32,000 bases of DNA from Pseudomonas aeruginosa (GTDB lineage Bacteria > Pseudomonadota > Gammaproteobacteria > Pseudomonadales > Pseudomonadaceae): the NCBI RefSeq assembly GCF_001457615.1, contig NZ_LN831024.1, forward strand, positions 3,240,001 through 3,272,000. Reading direction: 5' to 3'. A model generated the notes under the pieces. That model did not search any database. It saw only the letters and a list, made by a program, of their open reading frames with translations, and was not told the DNA's origin. The position numbers were made by a program, and so were the translations under genes. This document shows positions 163-7,221 of the stretch, piece after piece. Position 1 is the stretch's first letter, and every line of letters begins with the position of its first letter.

Positions 163-2805
163 ATGCACCGATCGCTCCACACCGACCCGCCGCTGGGCGC
201 CGCCCTGCTGCTGGCCCTGCAGCTCGCTCCCGGCAGCGCCGCCGCGGCGGAGGGACAGGCGCCTGTCGACCCGCCCACGGTCCAGTTGCAACGAATCGAG
301 GTGACCGGTAGCGCGATCCGCCGGGTCGATGCGGAAACCGCGGTGCCGATCAGCGTCCTGCGCGCCGAGGAGCTGCGCCAACAGGGCGTGACCAGCACCG
401 AGGAACTGATCGGCCGGCTTTCCGGCAACCAGGGCGTATACAACTCCAGTCGCTCGGTCGGCAGCGCCACCGGCGGCGCCTCGTTCGCCGACCTGCGCGG
501 GATCGGCGCGAACAAGACCCTGGTGCTGCTCAACGGCCGGCGCCTGGCGAACAATGCCATCGACGGCTCCGCCGTGGATCTCAACACCATTCCCTTCGCC
601 GCCATCGACCGGGTCGAGGTGCTGCGCGACGGCGCCTCCGCACTGTACGGCACCGATGCCATCGGCGGGGTGATCAACTTCATCACCCGCAAGAGCCTGA
701 ACGAAGGCCGCGTCGACAGCGGCTACGCCTCCCCCACCCACGACGGCGGCGGCAACCAGCGCAACGTCAGCGCTAGCTGGGGCTTCGGCGAGCTGGAGGA
801 GGATCGCTTCAATGTCTTCGCGGTGGCCAACTACGACAAGCAGGAACGCCTCGGCGCCAAGGACCGCGGCTACACCTACAACTACCAGCCGGGACGCGGC
901 CTCGACTACAGCTCCGGCACCGCCTTCCCCGGCAACTGGAGCCAGGGCGCCAACGCCAGCAATCCGCTGGCCGCCGGCGGTTGCAAGGGCGCCGACCTGA
1001 TCCCGCGCAACGGCATCTGCCGGCAGAGCCTGTGGCGCTACCTCGACCTGGTGCCGGAAACCGAGAAGACCTCGGTGTTCAGCCGCGCCACCGGCAAGCT
1101 GGCCGACGAGCACAACGTCAGTCTGGAGTACTTCTGGTCGCGCAACGACAACGCTACCCAGGTCGGCCCAGGGACCCTCACCGGCCTGCAGATCGATCCC
1201 GGCACCGCCTTCTATCCCGGCAACGGCATCACTCCCGGTCCCGGCGGCTTCGTCCTCGACCCGAGCCGGCCGGTGGAGGTCAACTGGCGGCAGAGCGTGC
1301 TCGGGCCGCGCCTGCAATCCTCGCAGAACACCGGCCAGCGCCTGCTGCTCGGCTTCGACGGCCAGTTCGCCGGCTGGGACTACGATATCGGCGCCTCGTA
1401 CAACCAGAACAAGGTGGTCGACCATATCCACAGCGGCTACGTCGACGATCGCGCCGCCGCCCTCGGCATCGCCAACGGGACGCTGAACCCGTTCGGGCCG
1501 CAGACCGACGCCGGCCTCGCCTACCTCGGCAGCCATGCCCTGAGCGGCGACTTCCGTACCTCGGTCGGCCGCGTCAAGGGCCTGGACGCCCGCGCCAGCC
1601 GGGAGATCGGCGACTGGTTCGGCGCCGGGCCGGCGGCCCTGGCGCTGGGCGGCGAGTTCCGCAAGGAAGCGTTCCACCAGGACATCCAGGACTTCGCCGG
1701 CAACGTGCAGAGCCTCGGCGTCGATCCCGCCGCCACGGTCAGCGGCGAGCGCAACCTGAAGGCGCAGTACGCCGAACTCAACGTGCCGGTGCTGGACAGC
1801 CTGGAACTCAGCGCGGCGATCCGCCACGACAAGTACAGCGACTTCGGCAGCACCAGCAACCCGAAATATTCGTTCCGCTTCCAGCCGTTCCGCCAGTTGG
1901 TCCTGCGCGGCGCCTACAGCGAAGGTTTCCGTGCGCCGTCGCTGTACGAACTGTACAACCCGACCTTCACCACCTATACCAGCGCCAACTACGACGACCC
2001 GCGCCTGTGCGCCGGCGGCCAGCCGAGCCAGGGCGGCATCGCCAACCGCGACTGCGCCCAGCAGTTCTACAACGCCACCGGCGGCAATACCGACCTGCGA
2101 CCGGAAACCGCGCGCAACGTTACCCTGGGCCTGGTCTACCAGCCGCTGCGCGACCTTTCCGTCGGCCTGGACTTCTGGTGGATCAGGATCGCCAACCAGA
2201 TCGCCGAGTTTCCCGAAGCGGCGATCTTCGCCGACCCGCAGGCCTACGCCGGACGCATCGTGCGCAAGGCCGACGGCTCGATCGATCACGTCGTCACCGG
2301 ACTGGCCAACCTCGGCAAGGTAAAGACCAGCGGCGTCGACCTGAGCCTCGATTATCGTTTCCCGGCCAGCCGCTACGGGCAGTTCGGGCTCGACCTGCAA
2401 GGCACCTACGTGTCCCGCTACGACTTCCAGCAGCAGATCGGCGGCCAGTACCTGGACAACGTCGGCGACTTCCAGGGCGTCGGCGTGATCGCCCGCTGGA
2501 AGCACGTCGCCAACGCCACCTGGAGCCGCGACGCCTGGCAGGCCACCCTGAGCAACCGCTACACCAGCGGCTACAACGACTACAACCGCGCCAGCCACGG
2601 CAAGGTCGGCTCGTGGAACCTCTGGGACCTGGCCGGCAGCTACCGCCTCAGCCACGCGCTGGGGCTGACCCTCGGGGTGAAGAACCTGTTCGACCGCGAA
2701 CCGCCGTTCAGCAACCAGACCTACACCTTCCAGAGCGGCTACGACCCGCGCTACACCGATCCCTACGGGCGCATCCTGTTCGGCCGCCTCAGCTACAGCT
2801 TCTGA
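163..2805 (+). CDS. TonB-dependent outer-membrane receptor (plain receptor, no N-terminal signalling domain)
   Basis: 880-aa ORF with ATG at 163. Signal-peptide-like N-terminus (LLLALQLAPGSAAAAEG). Plug-domain motifs VQLQRIEVTGSAIRR and VEVLRDGASALYGTDAIGGVINFITR. Long beta-barrel region ending in the aromatic C-terminus RLSYSF. Position corresponds to PA2070 in my memory of PAO1. Confidence 0.9.
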   Translation: MHRSLHTDPPLGAALLLALQLAPGSAAAAEGQAPVDPPTVQLQRIEVTGSAIRRVDAETAVPISVLRAEELRQQGVTSTEELIGRLSGNQGVYNSSRSVGSATGGASFADLRGIGANKTLVLLNGRRLANNAIDGSAVDLNTIPFAAIDRVEVLRDGASALYGTDAIGGVINFITRKSLNEGRVDSGYASPTHDGGGNQRNVSASWGFGELEEDRFNVFAVANYDKQERLGAKDRGYTYNYQPGRGLDYSSGTAFPGNWSQGANASNPLAAGGCKGADLIPRNGICRQSLWRYLDLVPETEKTSVFSRATGKLADEHNVSLEYFWSRNDNATQVGPGTLTGLQIDPGTAFYPGNGITPGPGGFVLDPSRPVEVNWRQSVLGPRLQSSQNTGQRLLLGFDGQFAGWDYDIGASYNQNKVVDHIHSGYVDDRAAALGIANGTLNPFGPQTDAGLAYLGSHALSGDFRTSVGRVKGLDARASREIGDWFGAGPAALALGGEFRKEAFHQDIQDFAGNVQSLGVDPAATVSGERNLKAQYAELNVPVLDSLELSAAIRHDKYSDFGSTSNPKYSFRFQPFRQLVLRGAYSEGFRAPSLYELYNPTFTTYTSANYDDPRLCAGGQPSQGGIANRDCAQQFYNATGGNTDLRPETARNVTLGLVYQPLRDLSVGLDFWWIRIANQIAEFPEAAIFADPQAYAGRIVRKADGSIDHVVTGLANLGKVKTSGVDLSLDYRFPASRYGQFGLDLQGTYVSRYDFQQQIGGQYLDNVGDFQGVGVIARWKHVANATWSRDAWQATLSNRYTSGYNDYNRASHGKVGSWNLWDLAGSYRLSHALGLTLGVKNLFDREPPFSNQTYTFQSGYDPRYTDPYGRILFGRLSYSF

Positions 2806-2859
2806 TGCCGGCGCGGGCGCCCGGCCGGTATGGCCGGCAAGCCCGTCGACGGCTGTCCA

Positions 2860-2912
2860 GCTACCAGATCCGGTAGCCCTGCCAGATTTCGCAGGCGACC
2901 AGATCTGGCAGG
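2860..2912 (+). promoter_or_regulatory. Array of three abutting lux-type (las/rhl) box-like palindromes upstream of the carbamoyltransferase gene
   Basis: GCTACCAGATCCGGTAGC (2860-2877), CCTGCCAGATTTCGCAGG (2878-2895), GCGACCAGATCTGGCAGG (2895-2912). The first two fit the CT-N12-AG las/rhl consensus exactly (2861-2876, 2879-2894); the third is CG-N12-AG (2896-2911). CCTGCCAG and TCTGGCAGG are the two half-sites of the lasB OP1 box ACCTGCCAGTTCTGGCAGGT. Box centres lie about 117, 99 and 82 nt upstream of the ATG at 2985. Confidence 0.55.
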
Positions 2913-2984
2913 TTGTTGGGCTCCCGGTGCCATGCAACCTATTACGCCTCTCGCCCCCCACCCGTTCGCGCAAGAGGACACCGC

Positions 2985-4709
2985 ATGATCATTCTCGGGA
3001 TCACCAACAACGACCTGGCCGGCGCCTGCCTGGTGCGCGACGGCGGGATCGTCGCCGCCGCCAGCGAGGAGCGCTTCACCCGCCAGAAGGACCACAAGGC
3101 CTGGCCGAGCCGCTCCATCGACTATGTGCTCGGCGAGGCCGGCATCGACCTGGCCGACATCGACCGCATCGCCTACGGCTGGAACGCCGGGTTCGACGCC
3201 GGGCGGCACCTCGACCTCTATCTGGACCGGGTCCTCGAGGAAGCCCGCGAGCGTCCCGAGGGCCTGCCGCACCTGCGCAAGCGGATCGCCGACGAAATGG
3301 CCAACGACAAGGCCAAGCGCGGCGAATTCGATGCCTTCGTCCGCGCCAACGGCCTGCGCGGCAAGGTCGAGTACATCGACCATCACGAATGCCACGCCCT
3401 CGGCGCGTTCGTCTGCTCGCCGTTCGACGAGGCGCTGACCCTCACCTGCGACGGCCGCGGCGACTTCCAGTCGCTCACCGTCACCCACTACCGCGCCGAC
3501 GGCGGCGAGACGGTCCTGCAACGCGAGACCAGCGTCGACAGCCTGGGCTACTTCTACGGGCGCATCACCCGCCTGCTCGGCTTCAAGCCGAACCGCCACG
3601 AAGGCAAGATCACCGGCCTGGCGGCGTTCGGCGACGCGGAAAAGCTGCTGCCGCTGATGAACGACATGATCCGCCTGGAGAACGGCCGCCTGCGCGCCCG
3701 CTGCGGCGAACTGTACCTGCCCTCCTACGACGGCTACAGCGATCCGCTGCTGCAACGCTGCGCGGCGGAACGCCCGGCGGATGTCGCCGCTGCCGCGCAA
3801 CGGCACTCCGAAGACCTGCTGGTGGCCATCGCCCGGGAGCACGTGGCGCGCACCGGCTGCGCCAACCTGTGCCTGGCCGGCGGGGTGTTCGGCAACGTCA
3901 AGCTGAACCAGCGCCTGCGCGAGATCCCCGGGGTCCGCGATGTCTACGTGCTGCCCTGCATGGGCGACGGCGGCCTGGCCCTGGCCGCGGCGGTGGCGGT
4001 GGCCTATCGCGAGAACGGTACGCGCTTCCCGGCGCCGAGCATGGCCCTCGGGCCGGACGCGCGCAGCGCCGCGCAGAATGCCGAGCTGATCGCCAGCCAG
4101 TACCCGCAACTGGCCTACAGCCGGCCGGCCAACCTGATCGAGACGCTGGTCGAAGCGCTGCGGGAAAACCAGGTGCTGGGCATGTTCAAGGGCCGCATGG
4201 AGTTCGGCCCGCGCGCCTTGTGCAACCGCAGCATCGTCTACCATCCCGGCGATGCCAGCGCCAACGACTGGCTCAATCAGCGCATGGAACGCACCGAGTT
4301 CATGCCATTCGCCCCGGTCACCGCGGTAGAACACGCCGAGGCTTGCTACGTTGGCTGGCGTGAAGACCAGGTGGCGGCCGACTACATGACCATGACCTAC
4401 GATTGCCATGCGGATTTCCGCGCGCGCTGCCCGGCAGTGGTGCATGTCGACGGCACCGCCCGGCCGCAGATCATCCGGCCGCAGGCCGATCCGTTCATGC
4501 ACGCCCTGCTGCATGCCTGGCATGCCCGCAGCGGCCAGCCGGCGCTGATCAACACCTCCTTCAACCGCCACGAGGAACCGATCGTCTGCGCCCCGCAGGA
4601 CGCCCTCGGCGCGCTGGAGGACGGCATGGTCGACCTGGTGGTGCTGGGCGAGTCCCTGCTGGTCTGGCGCAAGGGCGAGAACGCCTTCGCCAGGGCGCGC
4701 TTCGAGTGA
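2985..4709 (+). CDS. NodU/CmcH/TobZ-family carbamoyltransferase
   Basis: 574 aa from ATG 2985, in frame with the longer ORF-track entry 2913..4709. RBS AAGAGGA at 2972-2978, 6 nt upstream. Family-typical N-terminus MIILGITNNDLAGACLVRDGGIVAAASEERFTRQKDH. Also IDHHECHALGAF, CMGDGGLALAAA and the C-terminal LINTSFNRHEEPIV. Corresponds to PA2069 from memory. Confidence 0.9.
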   Translation: MIILGITNNDLAGACLVRDGGIVAAASEERFTRQKDHKAWPSRSIDYVLGEAGIDLADIDRIAYGWNAGFDAGRHLDLYLDRVLEEARERPEGLPHLRKRIADEMANDKAKRGEFDAFVRANGLRGKVEYIDHHECHALGAFVCSPFDEALTLTCDGRGDFQSLTVTHYRADGGETVLQRETSVDSLGYFYGRITRLLGFKPNRHEGKITGLAAFGDAEKLLPLMNDMIRLENGRLRARCGELYLPSYDGYSDPLLQRCAAERPADVAAAAQRHSEDLLVAIAREHVARTGCANLCLAGGVFGNVKLNQRLREIPGVRDVYVLPCMGDGGLALAAAVAVAYRENGTRFPAPSMALGPDARSAAQNAELIASQYPQLAYSRPANLIETLVEALRENQVLGMFKGRMEFGPRALCNRSIVYHPGDASANDWLNQRMERTEFMPFAPVTAVEHAEACYVGWREDQVAADYMTMTYDCHADFRARCPAVVHVDGTARPQIIRPQADPFMHALLHAWHARSGQPALINTSFNRHEEPIVCAPQDALGALEDGMVDLVVLGESLLVWRKGENAFARARFE

Positions 4710-4752: not shown

Positions 4753-5916
4753 ATGTACCTGATCTTTTCCGGCTACTTCGCCGCCGAGGGGCTGATCTAT
4801 CCGTTCTGGCCGACCTGGCTGGCCAGCCTGGGCTTCGGCGCCAGCCAGATCGGCCTGTTGATCGCCGCGGCCTACTGGCCGCAGGTGATCGCCGGGGTGG
4901 CGCTGACCTACGTGGCCGACTGGCGCATCGACCAGTTGCGCCTGGCGACCCTGCTGGCGGCCCTGGCCGGCGCCTGCGCCCTGCTGTTCCAGCTGGCCGA
5001 GGGCCTGCCCCTGTTCATCGCCCTGAGCGTGCTCTACGGCGCATTCTGGACCAGCGTGCTGCCGCTCACCGAATCCTACCTGCTCAAGCGCGACAAGGCC
5101 GCCCTGCAGAACTACGGGCGGGTACGCGCAGTCGGTTCGCTGGCCTTCATCCTCACCGCGACCCTGGGCGGCCTGCTGCTCGGTCGGTTCGGCCAGCAAC
5201 TGGTGCCCGCCCTGGTCGGCCTGACGATGCTGCTCACCGCGCTGGCCTGCCTGTTCCTCCGTCGCCGCAGCCTGCGCCGTCCGGACTCGCCGCTGCCGGG
5301 CGCCAGGCGCCGTCCCGACCTGCGCGGGATCCTCCGGCAACGCCCCCTGCTGCTGGCCATCGCCGCGGCGGGAATGATCCAACTGAGCCACTCGCTGTAC
5401 TTCACCACCGCCTCGCTGGGCTGGCAGGCGCTGGGCTACTCGTCGTTCTCGGTCGGCGCCTTCTGGGGCCTGGCGGTGATCGCCGAGATCAGCTTCTTCG
5501 CCGTCTCCAACCGCATCCTGGACCGCCACCCGGCGCTCCAGGTGATGCTCTTCTCCAGCCTTTGCGCGGCGCTGCGCTGGGGCCTGCTGGCCGGCAGCGA
5601 ACATCTCGCCGCGATCCTCCTCGGCCAGTGCCTGCACGCCCTCAGCTTCGCCGCCTACCACGCCGCGGTGATGCGCTACATCCGCGACCACGCGCCGGAA
5701 AGCGCGCGGGTACTGACCCAGGGAATCTACTACTCTCTGGCGGTAGCGCTGCCCATGGGCCTCGCCAGTCCGGCCGCCGGCTGGCTGTACGAAGGCCTGC
5801 CGCAGTGGTCCTATCTGATCATGGCGCTGTTCGCCCTCGGCGGCGCGGTCCTGGTCTGGCTTGCCCTACAGAGTGCCCGAGATGCATCGACTAGCGTTTT
5901 CAGCCGTTCTGTTTGA
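4753..5916 (+). CDS. MFS transporter (12-TM, LacY/HcaT-like MFS_1_like type)
   Basis: 387 aa with ATG at 4753, 43 nt after the carbamoyltransferase stop. Hydrophobic throughout. N-terminal GYFAAEGLIYPFWPTWLASLGF resembles the first TM signature of the MFS_1_like family. A central charged loop (RRRSLRRPDSPLPGARRRPDLR) separates two 6-TM halves. Confidence 0.85.
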   Translation: MYLIFSGYFAAEGLIYPFWPTWLASLGFGASQIGLLIAAAYWPQVIAGVALTYVADWRIDQLRLATLLAALAGACALLFQLAEGLPLFIALSVLYGAFWTSVLPLTESYLLKRDKAALQNYGRVRAVGSLAFILTATLGGLLLGRFGQQLVPALVGLTMLLTALACLFLRRRSLRRPDSPLPGARRRPDLRGILRQRPLLLAIAAAGMIQLSHSLYFTTASLGWQALGYSSFSVGAFWGLAVIAEISFFAVSNRILDRHPALQVMLFSSLCAALRWGLLAGSEHLAAILLGQCLHALSFAAYHAAVMRYIRDHAPESARVLTQGIYYSLAVALPMGLASPAAGWLYEGLPQWSYLIMALFALGGAVLVWLALQSARDASTSVFSRSV

Positions 5917-6586
5917 CATGGACGGCGTCCTGATCAGCTCCCGCGAAGCCATCGCCGCGGCCTGGAGCCGGGTCGCCGGCGAACAGGGCGTGGCGCTCGG
6001 CCCGGACTGCCTGCGCGACCACGTGCACGGTCGCCCGGGCGGCTACACCCTGGACTATCTGTTCGGCCACCTGCCGATGGAGCGCCGGCGGATCCTCAAG
6101 CAACGGGTCGATGCGCTGGAGGAAGGCGCCGACTGTCCCCTGCTGCCCGGCGTCGCCGCGGTGATCCGCCAGCTGCGTTGGCTGGACGTGCCCTTGGCGC
6201 TGGTCACCAGCAGTTGGCCGGCACGCATCGACCACGTGCTGCGCCAGCACGACCTGCAGGCGGCGTTCCGCACCCTGGTCAGCCGCGACGACGTGGTCCA
6301 CGGCAAGCCGGCTCCGGATGGCTATCGCCTGGCCGCGGCCAGGCTCGGCGTGGCACCGTCGCGCTGCCTGGTGTTCGAAGACTCCCTCAGCGGCGTGCAG
6401 GCCGCCTGTGCCGCCGGCGCGACCTGCGTGGCGATCGGCGAGGAGAGCGGCCTGCTCGCCGCCGGCGCGCGCTGGTCGGTCCGGGATTTCCGCGAGCTAC
6501 GGATCGTCCGCGAAGACGACCGGCTGTACTGCCAGCATCGGCACCCCGCCACGACCGGCAGCGAGAGGAGCGTTGGCGTCCCATGA
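5882..6586 (+). CDS. HAD-superfamily hydrolase/phosphatase (subfamily IA)
   Basis: HAD motif I LFDMDGVLISS, motif II LVTSS, motif IV FEDSLSGVQAA. The ORF-track start at 5861 is a TTG, so I prefer ATG 5882 (MHRLAFSAV...). Either start overlaps the MFS gene end (5916) out of frame. The stop overlaps the next gene start in ATGA (6583-6586). Confidence 0.85.
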   Translation: MHRLAFSAVLFDMDGVLISSREAIAAAWSRVAGEQGVALGPDCLRDHVHGRPGGYTLDYLFGHLPMERRRILKQRVDALEEGADCPLLPGVAAVIRQLRWLDVPLALVTSSWPARIDHVLRQHDLQAAFRTLVSRDDVVHGKPAPDGYRLAAARLGVAPSRCLVFEDSLSGVQAACAAGATCVAIGEESGLLAAGARWSVRDFRELRIVREDDRLYCQHRHPATTGSERSVGVP

Positions 6587-7221
6587 GCCCGACCCTGCAA
6601 GATGCCCGGCTGCTCTGGGACTTCCTCGGCCAGGGCCGCTGCCATGTGCCCTGCGAACTGCTGGTGGTATGCGGCTCCTACGACCTGCGGGTCTGCGACC
6701 ACGCCTGCGAGCTGCTCGAACGCGGCCTCGCCGAACGCCTGCTGTTCACCGGCAACACCGGGCACTGGACGCGCCATCTCTGGGTCGAGCCGGAAGCCGA
6801 GCTGTTCGCCCGCCACGCCAGGGCACGCGGGGTAAGCGACAGCCTCATCGTGATCGAGCCGCGGGCGACCAACTTCGCCGAGAACATCGCCTTCGCCCGC
6901 GAGCTGTTCCCCGACCTGCGCCGCGCGACCTTCGTCACCAAGCCCAACTCGATCCGCCGCGTGGCGCTGACCCTGCCGGTCCGCTGGCCGGGTCTGGAGG
7001 GACACGTGGATGCGCCCGACTACGCATTTCCCGACGGCATCTCGAACCTGGTCGGCGTACTCGGGGTGATCGACGAGATGGTCGGCGACCTTGACCGCAT
7101 CATGCGTTACCCGGCGCTGGGCTTCCAGGTCGCCTGCCCGATCCCGGCGCAGGTCATGGACGCCTGGGAACGCCTGGTGGCGCGCGGTTTCGACCGCCAC
7201 CTGGTGAACCCGCCGCGCTGA
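6583..7221 (+). CDS. DUF218 / YdcF-like protein
   Basis: 212 aa from ATG 6583, in frame within ORF 6178..7221. RBS GAGAGGAG at 6562-6569. Shares the ATGA overlap with the HAD stop. DUF218-like core LVVCGSYDLRV...LLFTGNTGH...EAELFARHARARGVSDSLIVIEPRATNFAENIAFAREL. Confidence 0.8.
   Translation: MSPTLQDARLLWDFLGQGRCHVPCELLVVCGSYDLRVCDHACELLERGLAERLLFTGNTGHWTRHLWVEPEAELFARHARARGVSDSLIVIEPRATNFAENIAFARELFPDLRRATFVTKPNSIRRVALTLPVRWPGLEGHVDAPDYAFPDGISNLVGVLGVIDEMVGDLDRIMRYPALGFQVACPIPAQVMDAWERLVARGFDRHLVNPPR

Follow-up and report, generated by a model that had tools for sequence, protein, structure and literature searches.

Three Adjoining las-rhl Boxes in the Quorum-Sensing Promoter of the Carbamoyltransferase Operon PA2069–PA2066 of Pseudomonas aeruginosa

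Locus and Operon

In front of the carbamoyltransferase operon of Pseudomonas aeruginosa, three las-rhl (lux-type) boxes adjoin one another within 53 nt, which raises the question of whether all three serve quorum-sensing (QS) control or whether one of them does the work. The segment occupies positions 2860–2912 of the window, i.e., the whole 32-kb stretch of DNA that was analyzed. Published work already covers this promoter, including the start site, the regulators, and two of the three boxes. The unreported detail is that three good boxes stand side by side: Wurtzel 2012 and Keegan 2023 each annotated one box, and not the same one; the three-box arrangement is mentioned in neither study, and box 1 is annotated in neither. 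The segment is a known QS element, and the abutting three-box layout and a natural two-box allele are modest new details.

The locus was identified by gene collinearity and homology as the P. aeruginosa PA2070 | PA2069–PA2066 region (the PA14_37745 operon). From PA14_37730 through pcoA, the PA14 genes run collinear with those of the window at a constant offset (window position = PA14 position − 3361853), which is backed by the collinearity of the downstream genes and by the mapping of published EMSA primers. The TonB-dependent receptor gene PA2070 (163–2805) is located upstream of the boxes and is co-directional with the operon. The first gene of the operon (PA2069/PA14_37745, 2985–4709, plus strand) encodes a protein with the Pfam domains Carbam_trans_N and Carbam_trans_C; it has 99% identity to the P. 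aeruginosa carbamoyltransferase, and thousands of P. aeruginosa assemblies encode exactly this protein. The remainder of the operon (4753–7221, plus strand) contains the genes of an MFS transporter (4753–5916), a HAD hydrolase (5918–6586), and a DUF218 protein (6583–7221), according to Pfam and to the gene calls in loci L066 and L078; a multicopper oxidase gene comes next. The four-gene transcription unit PA14_37745-37780 is listed in Table S3 of Wurtzel 2012 (PMC3460626).

Published Regulation of the Operon

The original prediction placed las-rhl boxes before the carbamoyltransferase operon, and the literature bears this out for two of them: box 3 is a published LasR box and box 2 is a published RhlR motif. 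Wurtzel 2012 (PMC3460626) demonstrated a gel shift with purified LasR and LasR-dependent lacZ expression, and listed box 3, CGACCAGATCTGGCAG, as the single LasR box of this promoter, at −52..−37, validated by ‘LacZ + EMSA’. The primers used there map to 2799–2815 and 2958–2972 of the window, so the fragment (2799–2972) holds all three boxes. In Keegan 2023 (PMC10732425), an RhlR ChIP-seq peak is centered at PA14 position 3364761, corresponding to window position 2908, and the motif listed for this PA14_37745 peak, GCCCTGCCAGATTTCGCAGGC, is box 2. The ChIP-seq signal of RhlR is 423.7 in the wild type, 4.9 in the delta-rhlR strain, 112 in the delta-pqsE strain, and 37 in the delta-rhlI strain (PMC10732425). 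In a second data set, from a 2026 study (PMC13192270), RhlR occupancy rises from 33.8 in the absence of C4-HSL to 408.8 in its presence. The occupancy by RhlR in vivo is thus dependent on C4-HSL and, in part, on PqsE. For LasR, Huang 2019 reports a ChIP-seq peak at PA2069.

The strong QS induction of the operon, mentioned in the original prediction, is likewise confirmed by published data. Expression of the operon depends 34-fold on RhlR and 14.6-fold on RhlI (Keegan 2023, PMC10732425), and RhlR alone raises PA2069 expression 37-fold, RhlR together with PqsE 224-fold (Letizia 2022, PMC9241726). PA2066–PA2068 behave likewise (PMC9241726), and all four genes are RhlR-dependent. The PA2069 operon is one of the most strongly RhlR-dependent in P. 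aeruginosa and a validated target of both LasR and RhlR. The inclusion of QscR among the regulators of the array is contradicted by published data: QscR ChIP-seq revealed a single genomic target, the PA1897 promoter (Ding 2018, PMC6113619), and the factors that Huang 2019 lists for PA2069 do not include QscR.

The RhlR signal of 423.7 is the third lowest among the true sites listed in Table 1 of Keegan 2023. At this site (3364761), an RhlR ChIP signal near the bottom of the list goes together with an RhlR-dependent expression change near the top (34-fold). The position of the peak center was calibrated on nine promoters with known boxes, and the resulting offset (+19.6 ± 19 bp) is too coarse to pick a box; the offsets of the peak from the three boxes correspond to z = −0.8, 0.1, and 1.0. 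Since the EMSA fragment holds all three boxes and the ChIP offset is coarse, the published binding data apply to the fragment and not to each box.

Sequence and Coordinates of the Three Boxes

The segment 2860–2912 reads GCTACCAGATCCGGTAGC / CCTGCCAGATTTCGCAGG / (G)CGACCAGATCTGGCAGG. Box 1, a las-rhl box (2860–2877; core CTACCAGATCCGGTAG at 2861–2876), is centered at −79.5 from the transcription start. Box 2, an RhlR box of the rhlA type (2878–2895; core CTGCCAGATTTCGCAG at 2879–2894), is centered at −61.5, and the published 21-mer covers 2876–2896. Box 3, the promoter-proximal las-rhl box (2895–2912; core at 2896–2911), is centered at −44.5. The centers are at 2868.5, 2886.5, and 2903.5, with a spacing of 18 and 17 bp, and they precede the ATG at 2985 by 116.5, 98.5, and 81.5 nt, in agreement with the distances given originally. 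The description of three abutting boxes is right in that the array is contiguous over 53 nt, although boxes 2 and 3 overlap by one base (G2895).

A repeat finder recovered the box 1 palindrome, as well as the relations between boxes 1 and 3 and between boxes 2 and 3, each as a direct and an inverted repeat. It also confirmed the predicted inverted repeat, CCTGCCAGAT / ATCTGGCAGG, whose 10-nt arms are perfectly complementary across a 15-nt spacer (repeat-finder pair I4). The palindrome ascribed to box 3 is perfect only in its inner 10 bp, CCAGATCTGG; of its outer pairs, just one in four is complementary (C2896–G2911). In the left half-site of this box, CG replaces the conserved CT.

The lasB OP1 sequence cited in the original prediction matches the published one (CTGCCAGTTCTGGCAG in Wurtzel, AACCTGCCAGAACTGGCAGGT in Keegan), and its two half-sites are reproduced by the left arm of box 2 and the right arm of box 3. 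The boxes closest to those of the array belong to other promoters. Box 1 is identical at 14/16 positions to the boxes of vqsR, phzA1, phzM, and rahU, box 2 at 15/16 to the rhlA box, both in P. aeruginosa and in P. paraeruginosa, and box 3 at 15/16 to the rahU box. Among themselves, the three boxes agree at just 11–13/16 positions. Tandem Repeats Finder reported no repeat at the array. The greater likeness to the boxes of other promoters, together with this result, indicates that the array is not simply a fresh duplication. A tandem repeat or repetitive extragenic element was also considered and rejected, given the 11–13/16 identity among the boxes versus 14–15/16 to boxes of other promoters.

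Statistical Support from Motif Scoring

The CT-N12-AG rule invoked in the original prediction describes the boxes correctly, including the CG of box 3, but it does not discriminate by itself: 78 matches occur in the window versus 97 expected. As the rule is uninformative, weight matrices were built from published sites, with this promoter left out. The RhlR matrix is a 21-mer based on 25 further motif instances that Keegan 2023 lists for RhlR ChIP-seq peaks, and the LasR matrix is a 16-mer based on 33 other boxes of Table S4 of Wurtzel 2012; several promoters are common to both, so the two matrices are not fully independent.

By consensus and matrix match, all three sites are las-rhl boxes and stand at the top of the window under both matrices, box 1 being preceded by one unrelated site under the RhlR matrix. 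With that matrix, box 2 scores 19.4 bits and ranks first among 64,000 window positions, box 3 is second (13.6 bits), and box 1 (9.4 bits) is below all training sites, the unrelated site scoring 10.6. With the LasR matrix, the scores are 20.3, 17.5, and 17.4 bits for boxes 1, 2, and 3, and the three boxes account for the six best strand-positions of the window; the next unrelated site, within an ORF, has 14.5 bits. The matrices order the boxes differently, box 1 being the top for LasR and box 2 for RhlR. No comparable copies of the boxes were found elsewhere in the 32-kb window with either matrix. In simulated 32-kb sequences of the same dinucleotide content, 0.023 positions reached at least 17.4 bits with the LasR matrix. 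Three sites of 17–20 bits within 53 bp are therefore not due to chance.

Promoter Anatomy

The transcription start of the PA2069–PA2066 operon (Wurtzel 2012, PA14 3364801) corresponds to window position 2948 on the plus strand; with the ORF start at PA14 3364838, the 5′ UTR is 37 nt long (Tables S3/S4, PMC3460626). A putative −35-like hexamer TTGTTG (2913–2918, plus strand; 3/6 to TTGACA) is located 17 bp upstream of AACCTA, a putative and weak −10-like hexamer (2936–2941, plus strand; −12..−7 from the published start). A scan of 2600–3200 for consensus promoters and terminators gave no match, as expected for promoters, since this one is activator-dependent.

According to a review (PMC13043044), activation requires a lux box just upstream of the −35 element. 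Only box 3 stands in this canonical position: it directly adjoins the −35-like TTGTTG, and −52..−37 is the modal LasR-box position in the table of Wurtzel 2012 (PMC3460626). Box 2 starts at −69 (−69..−54) and box 1 at −87, both being non-canonical positions; published boxes are also known at −73 and −90 (Wurtzel 2012, PMC3460626). The spacing of 17–18 bp between boxes is about 1.65 helical turns, so that adjacent dimers would lie on different faces of the DNA and their 20-bp footprints would overlap by 2–3 bp.

An imperfect inverted repeat, AGGTTGTTGGGCTCC / GGTGCCATGCAACCT, at 2910–2940 covers the putative −35 to −10 region. Several other regulators, RsaL among them, have ChIP-seq peaks at PA2069 in Huang 2019. 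A second operator over the core promoter of PA2069 is conceivable.

Variation in P. aeruginosa and Comparison with Relatives

The 53-nt segment is identical in 21 of the 25 P. aeruginosa-type sequences. A metagenome contig (L082, OKFU01000504.1) has the sequence of the window minus 17 nt (2891–2907), deleted between GCAGG direct repeats. The deletion takes out exactly one box unit and brings box 2 to −52..−37, beside the −35 element, and its RhlR matrix score rises to 22.2. Three P. aeruginosa assemblies (L087, L088, and L089) have a C to T substitution at 2877, which belongs to the two-base linker separating the cores of boxes 1 and 2, and all core positions are intact in them.

All three boxes are kept in P. 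paraeruginosa (L001 and the metagenome contig L086). Box 3 is unaltered there; box 1 differs by a single substitution (A to G at 2863, giving CTGCC) and box 2 by two (giving CTGGC...CACAG). These substitutions are compatible with the matrix, and the matrix scores of boxes 1–3 are 8.6, 17.5, and 13.6. In P. paraeruginosa ATCC 9027 (L001 1–3860 compared with about 163–2838 of the window), the receptor gene PA2070 is missing and a divergent fusA2 gene (elongation factor G) is located upstream; homology with the window starts about 20 bp before box 1. The retention of the boxes without the receptor gene indicates that the array belongs to the operon and is not a terminator of the receptor gene.

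The intergenic segment shared by P. aeruginosa and P. paraeruginosa shows a divergence of 6.8% versus 12.4% at four-fold gene sites (P = 0.02). In the comparison of these two species, the boxes do not stand out in conservation from the flanking promoter DNA. The three interspecies changes were not significantly more benign than random ones in a substitution-tolerance test (P = 0.14–0.21). Among 65 loci with orthologous cassettes from other genera and other Pseudomonas (protein identity of at most 73%), none had convincing boxes directly upstream; the many matches in AT-rich genomes arise artificially because the background model is G+C-rich. The comparison is thus confined to P. aeruginosa and P. 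paraeruginosa.

Proposed Working of the Promoter and Alternative Explanations

The 53-bp segment is probably the QS operator region of the activator-dependent PA2069–PA2066 promoter, in which boxes 1 and 2 would be auxiliary to box 3. In the proposed mechanism, an RhlR (or LasR) dimer bound at box 3, whose center at −44.5 is the usual position of a LuxR-type activator, would contact RNA polymerase. Box 2, the best RhlR match and nearly a copy of the RhlR-specific rhlA box, and box 1, the best LasR match, would act upstream as auxiliary high-affinity entry sites; they would raise the local occupancy of the regulators and may help load the weak box 3. The outcome would be a strong RhlR dependence combined with LasR binding in vitro.

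Several other explanations deserve consideration. A single box may be the working one, either box 3 by its position or box 2 by its affinity, with the others being non-functional look-alikes, e.g., the undecayed remains of old unit duplications. Each published study explained its data with one box, and canonically a lux box has to lie against the −35 element (PMC13043044). The weak RhlR ChIP enrichment, the lack of a box-specific conservation signal between the two species, the off-phase 17–18 bp spacing with overlapping 20-bp footprints, and the occurrence of a unit-length change (the 17-nt GCAGG-repeat deletion in L082) point in the same direction. However, chance is a very unlikely reason for the persistence of three 17–20-bit sites in 53 bp, and P. 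paraeruginosa, at a neutral divergence of 12%, still has all three. Each box is also nearer to the consensus than to its neighbors, and it is the proximal box whose CT is damaged, while the best RhlR match lies one unit upstream. A single working box is a serious alternative but less probable than an operator with auxiliary boxes.

A more elaborate variant is a composite operator, where two to three RhlR–PqsE and/or LasR dimers sit on the neighboring out-of-phase boxes at once, or where a dimer is handed over from the distal to the proximal box. We regard this variant as rather doubtful, and the published RhlR ChIP signal (423.7, the third lowest of the true sites) is a counter-signal to strong occupancy by several dimers. 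If it were true, it would explain the very large C4-HSL- and PqsE-sensitive induction of PA2069 despite the low steady-state occupancy, the number of boxes would be a naturally variable tuning parameter (cf. the 17-nt deletion allele), and the architecture would be one undescribed for LuxR-type QS regulators. Still less likely is the platform suggested in the original prediction, which would be occupied simultaneously, in a cooperative or competitive manner, by LasR, RhlR, and QscR on adjacent helix faces. It agrees with the binding of LasR to the fragment in vitro and of RhlR in vivo, with the LasR ChIP-seq peak at PA2069 (Huang 2019), and with the different ranking of the boxes by the two matrices (box 1 by LasR, box 2 by RhlR); but the lone genomic target of QscR is PA1897 (PMC6113619), the spacing of 17–18 bp is out of phase with 20-bp footprints that overlap, and the ChIP occupancy is low.

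The array might also act in RNA, its hairpins terminating or stabilizing the transcript of the TonB-dependent receptor gene instead of serving as a promoter element. It lies 55–107 nt past the receptor stop codon, and the plus-strand RNA fold is strong (−34.2 kcal/mol, z = −3.9), which three related palindromes yield automatically. Against this, transcription of the operon, a unit of its own, starts 36 nt beyond box 3; neither a U-tract nor a terminator-like match was found, and the TTGTTG that follows the array is the putative −35 element. The boxes are kept in P. paraeruginosa with the divergent fusA2 upstream in place of the receptor gene, the register of the fold differs between the species, and the two box 2 changes hit paired positions uncompensated. 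Rfam gave zero matches in the whole window, and a separate strong hairpin (2807–2853) directly follows the receptor stop codon. A role in RNA is thus highly improbable, and the narrower alternative, that the palindromes are only the terminator of the receptor gene, is refuted by the downstream start at 2948, the missing U-tract, and the retention of the boxes without that gene. An intrinsic (Rho-independent) terminator was rejected as a class for the array: its tail reads TTGTTGGG, and the array is kept without a co-directional upstream gene.

The hairpin at 2807–2853 is G+C-rich, lies apart from the boxes, and is absent from P. paraeruginosa along with the receptor gene. It is a more plausible candidate for the 3′ end structure of the receptor gene than the boxes are.

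The presence of three boxes reconciles the differing single-box annotations of the two genome-wide studies, and it cautions that a pipeline with a single motif reported for each peak can mask multi-site promoters. The promoter is a compact natural test case for the use of packed sites by LuxR-type regulators and for the encoding of RhlR, LasR, and PqsE dependence in DNA; the natural two-box allele (L082) is a ready comparison to the three-box promoter.

Comparison with Known Systems

The original prediction held that QS promoters normally carry one box and that lasB has two. The two boxes of lasB are confirmed, but the statement is incomplete: Wurtzel 2012 (PMC3460626) names two multi-site promoters, lasB with two LasR boxes and PA14_21030 (PA3326) with four. 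Like the promoter studied here, the lasB promoter is activated by LasR and RhlR through more than one las-rhl box, the proximal one being at −50..−35. However, the two lasB boxes (−50..−35 and −111..−96) are 61 bp apart, whereas the three boxes of PA2069 follow one another at 17–18 bp with no spacer. The PA14_21030 (PA3326, clpP2) / azeB region is another multi-box QS promoter, to which LasR binds in EMSA and RhlR according to ChIP-seq; its four LasR boxes are 30–33 bp apart (about three turns, on the same face), in contrast to the out-of-phase, abutting boxes described here.

The rhlA promoter has a box, CTGTGAAATCTGGCAG, with 15/16 positions in common with box 2, and both promoters depend on RhlR and C4-HSL. 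Unlike box 2 at −69..−54, the rhlA box is located at −51..−36, beside the −35 element, and it is recorded as negative for LasR binding in EMSA. The lux box of Vibrio fischeri luxI is a 20-bp dyad directly upstream of the −35 element, to which a LuxR-type dimer binds in an acyl-homoserine-lactone-dependent manner and recruits RNA polymerase (PMC13043044). In this respect it resembles the present promoter; in contrast, luxI has one box, and activation is lost when that box is moved (PMC13043044).

Cooperative arrays of the lambda OR or BvgA type have demonstrated cooperative binding and a whole-turn spacing that permits contacts between dimers; the array of PA2069 differs from this class, its boxes being about 1.65 turns apart. 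BvgA is a response regulator with the same DNA-binding fold as the LuxR-type regulators. At the hcnA promoter, the main lux box is reportedly preceded, within a few bp, by a weaker second one. This promoter is said to carry lux boxes alpha and beta plus an ANR site, i.e., two boxes and not three. By analogy, the alpha/beta pair would be a precedent for nearly abutting boxes.

Other Variation at the Locus

Five carbamoyltransferase sequences (P0002, P0003, P0004, P0005, and P0066) were considered as divergent alleles and rejected, as they come from ordinary P. aeruginosa with frameshifts or deletions or from an unrelated AT-rich organism. Shortened carbamoyltransferases are present in some P. 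aeruginosa assemblies (524 aa in P0002 and 519 aa in P0003 versus 574 aa), apparently as a result of internal deletions; these alleles may represent loss-of-function variation in a QS-controlled gene.

A carbamoyltransferase–MFS–hydrolase cassette of an AT-rich organism was found in a Logan contig (L076, orthologue 75% identical). There, a 30-nt palindrome, TTGATAGATAATCA-TG-TGATTATCTATCAA, at positions 280–310 precedes the cassette instead of lux boxes, which suggests, as far as the sequence goes, that this cassette may be under a different regulator.

In the 5′ UTR of the PA2069 operon, the poly-C tract at 2954–2959 is six or five C long, depending on the P. aeruginosa sequence (L067, L072, L073, and L079), and it reads CCACCC in P. 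paraeruginosa.
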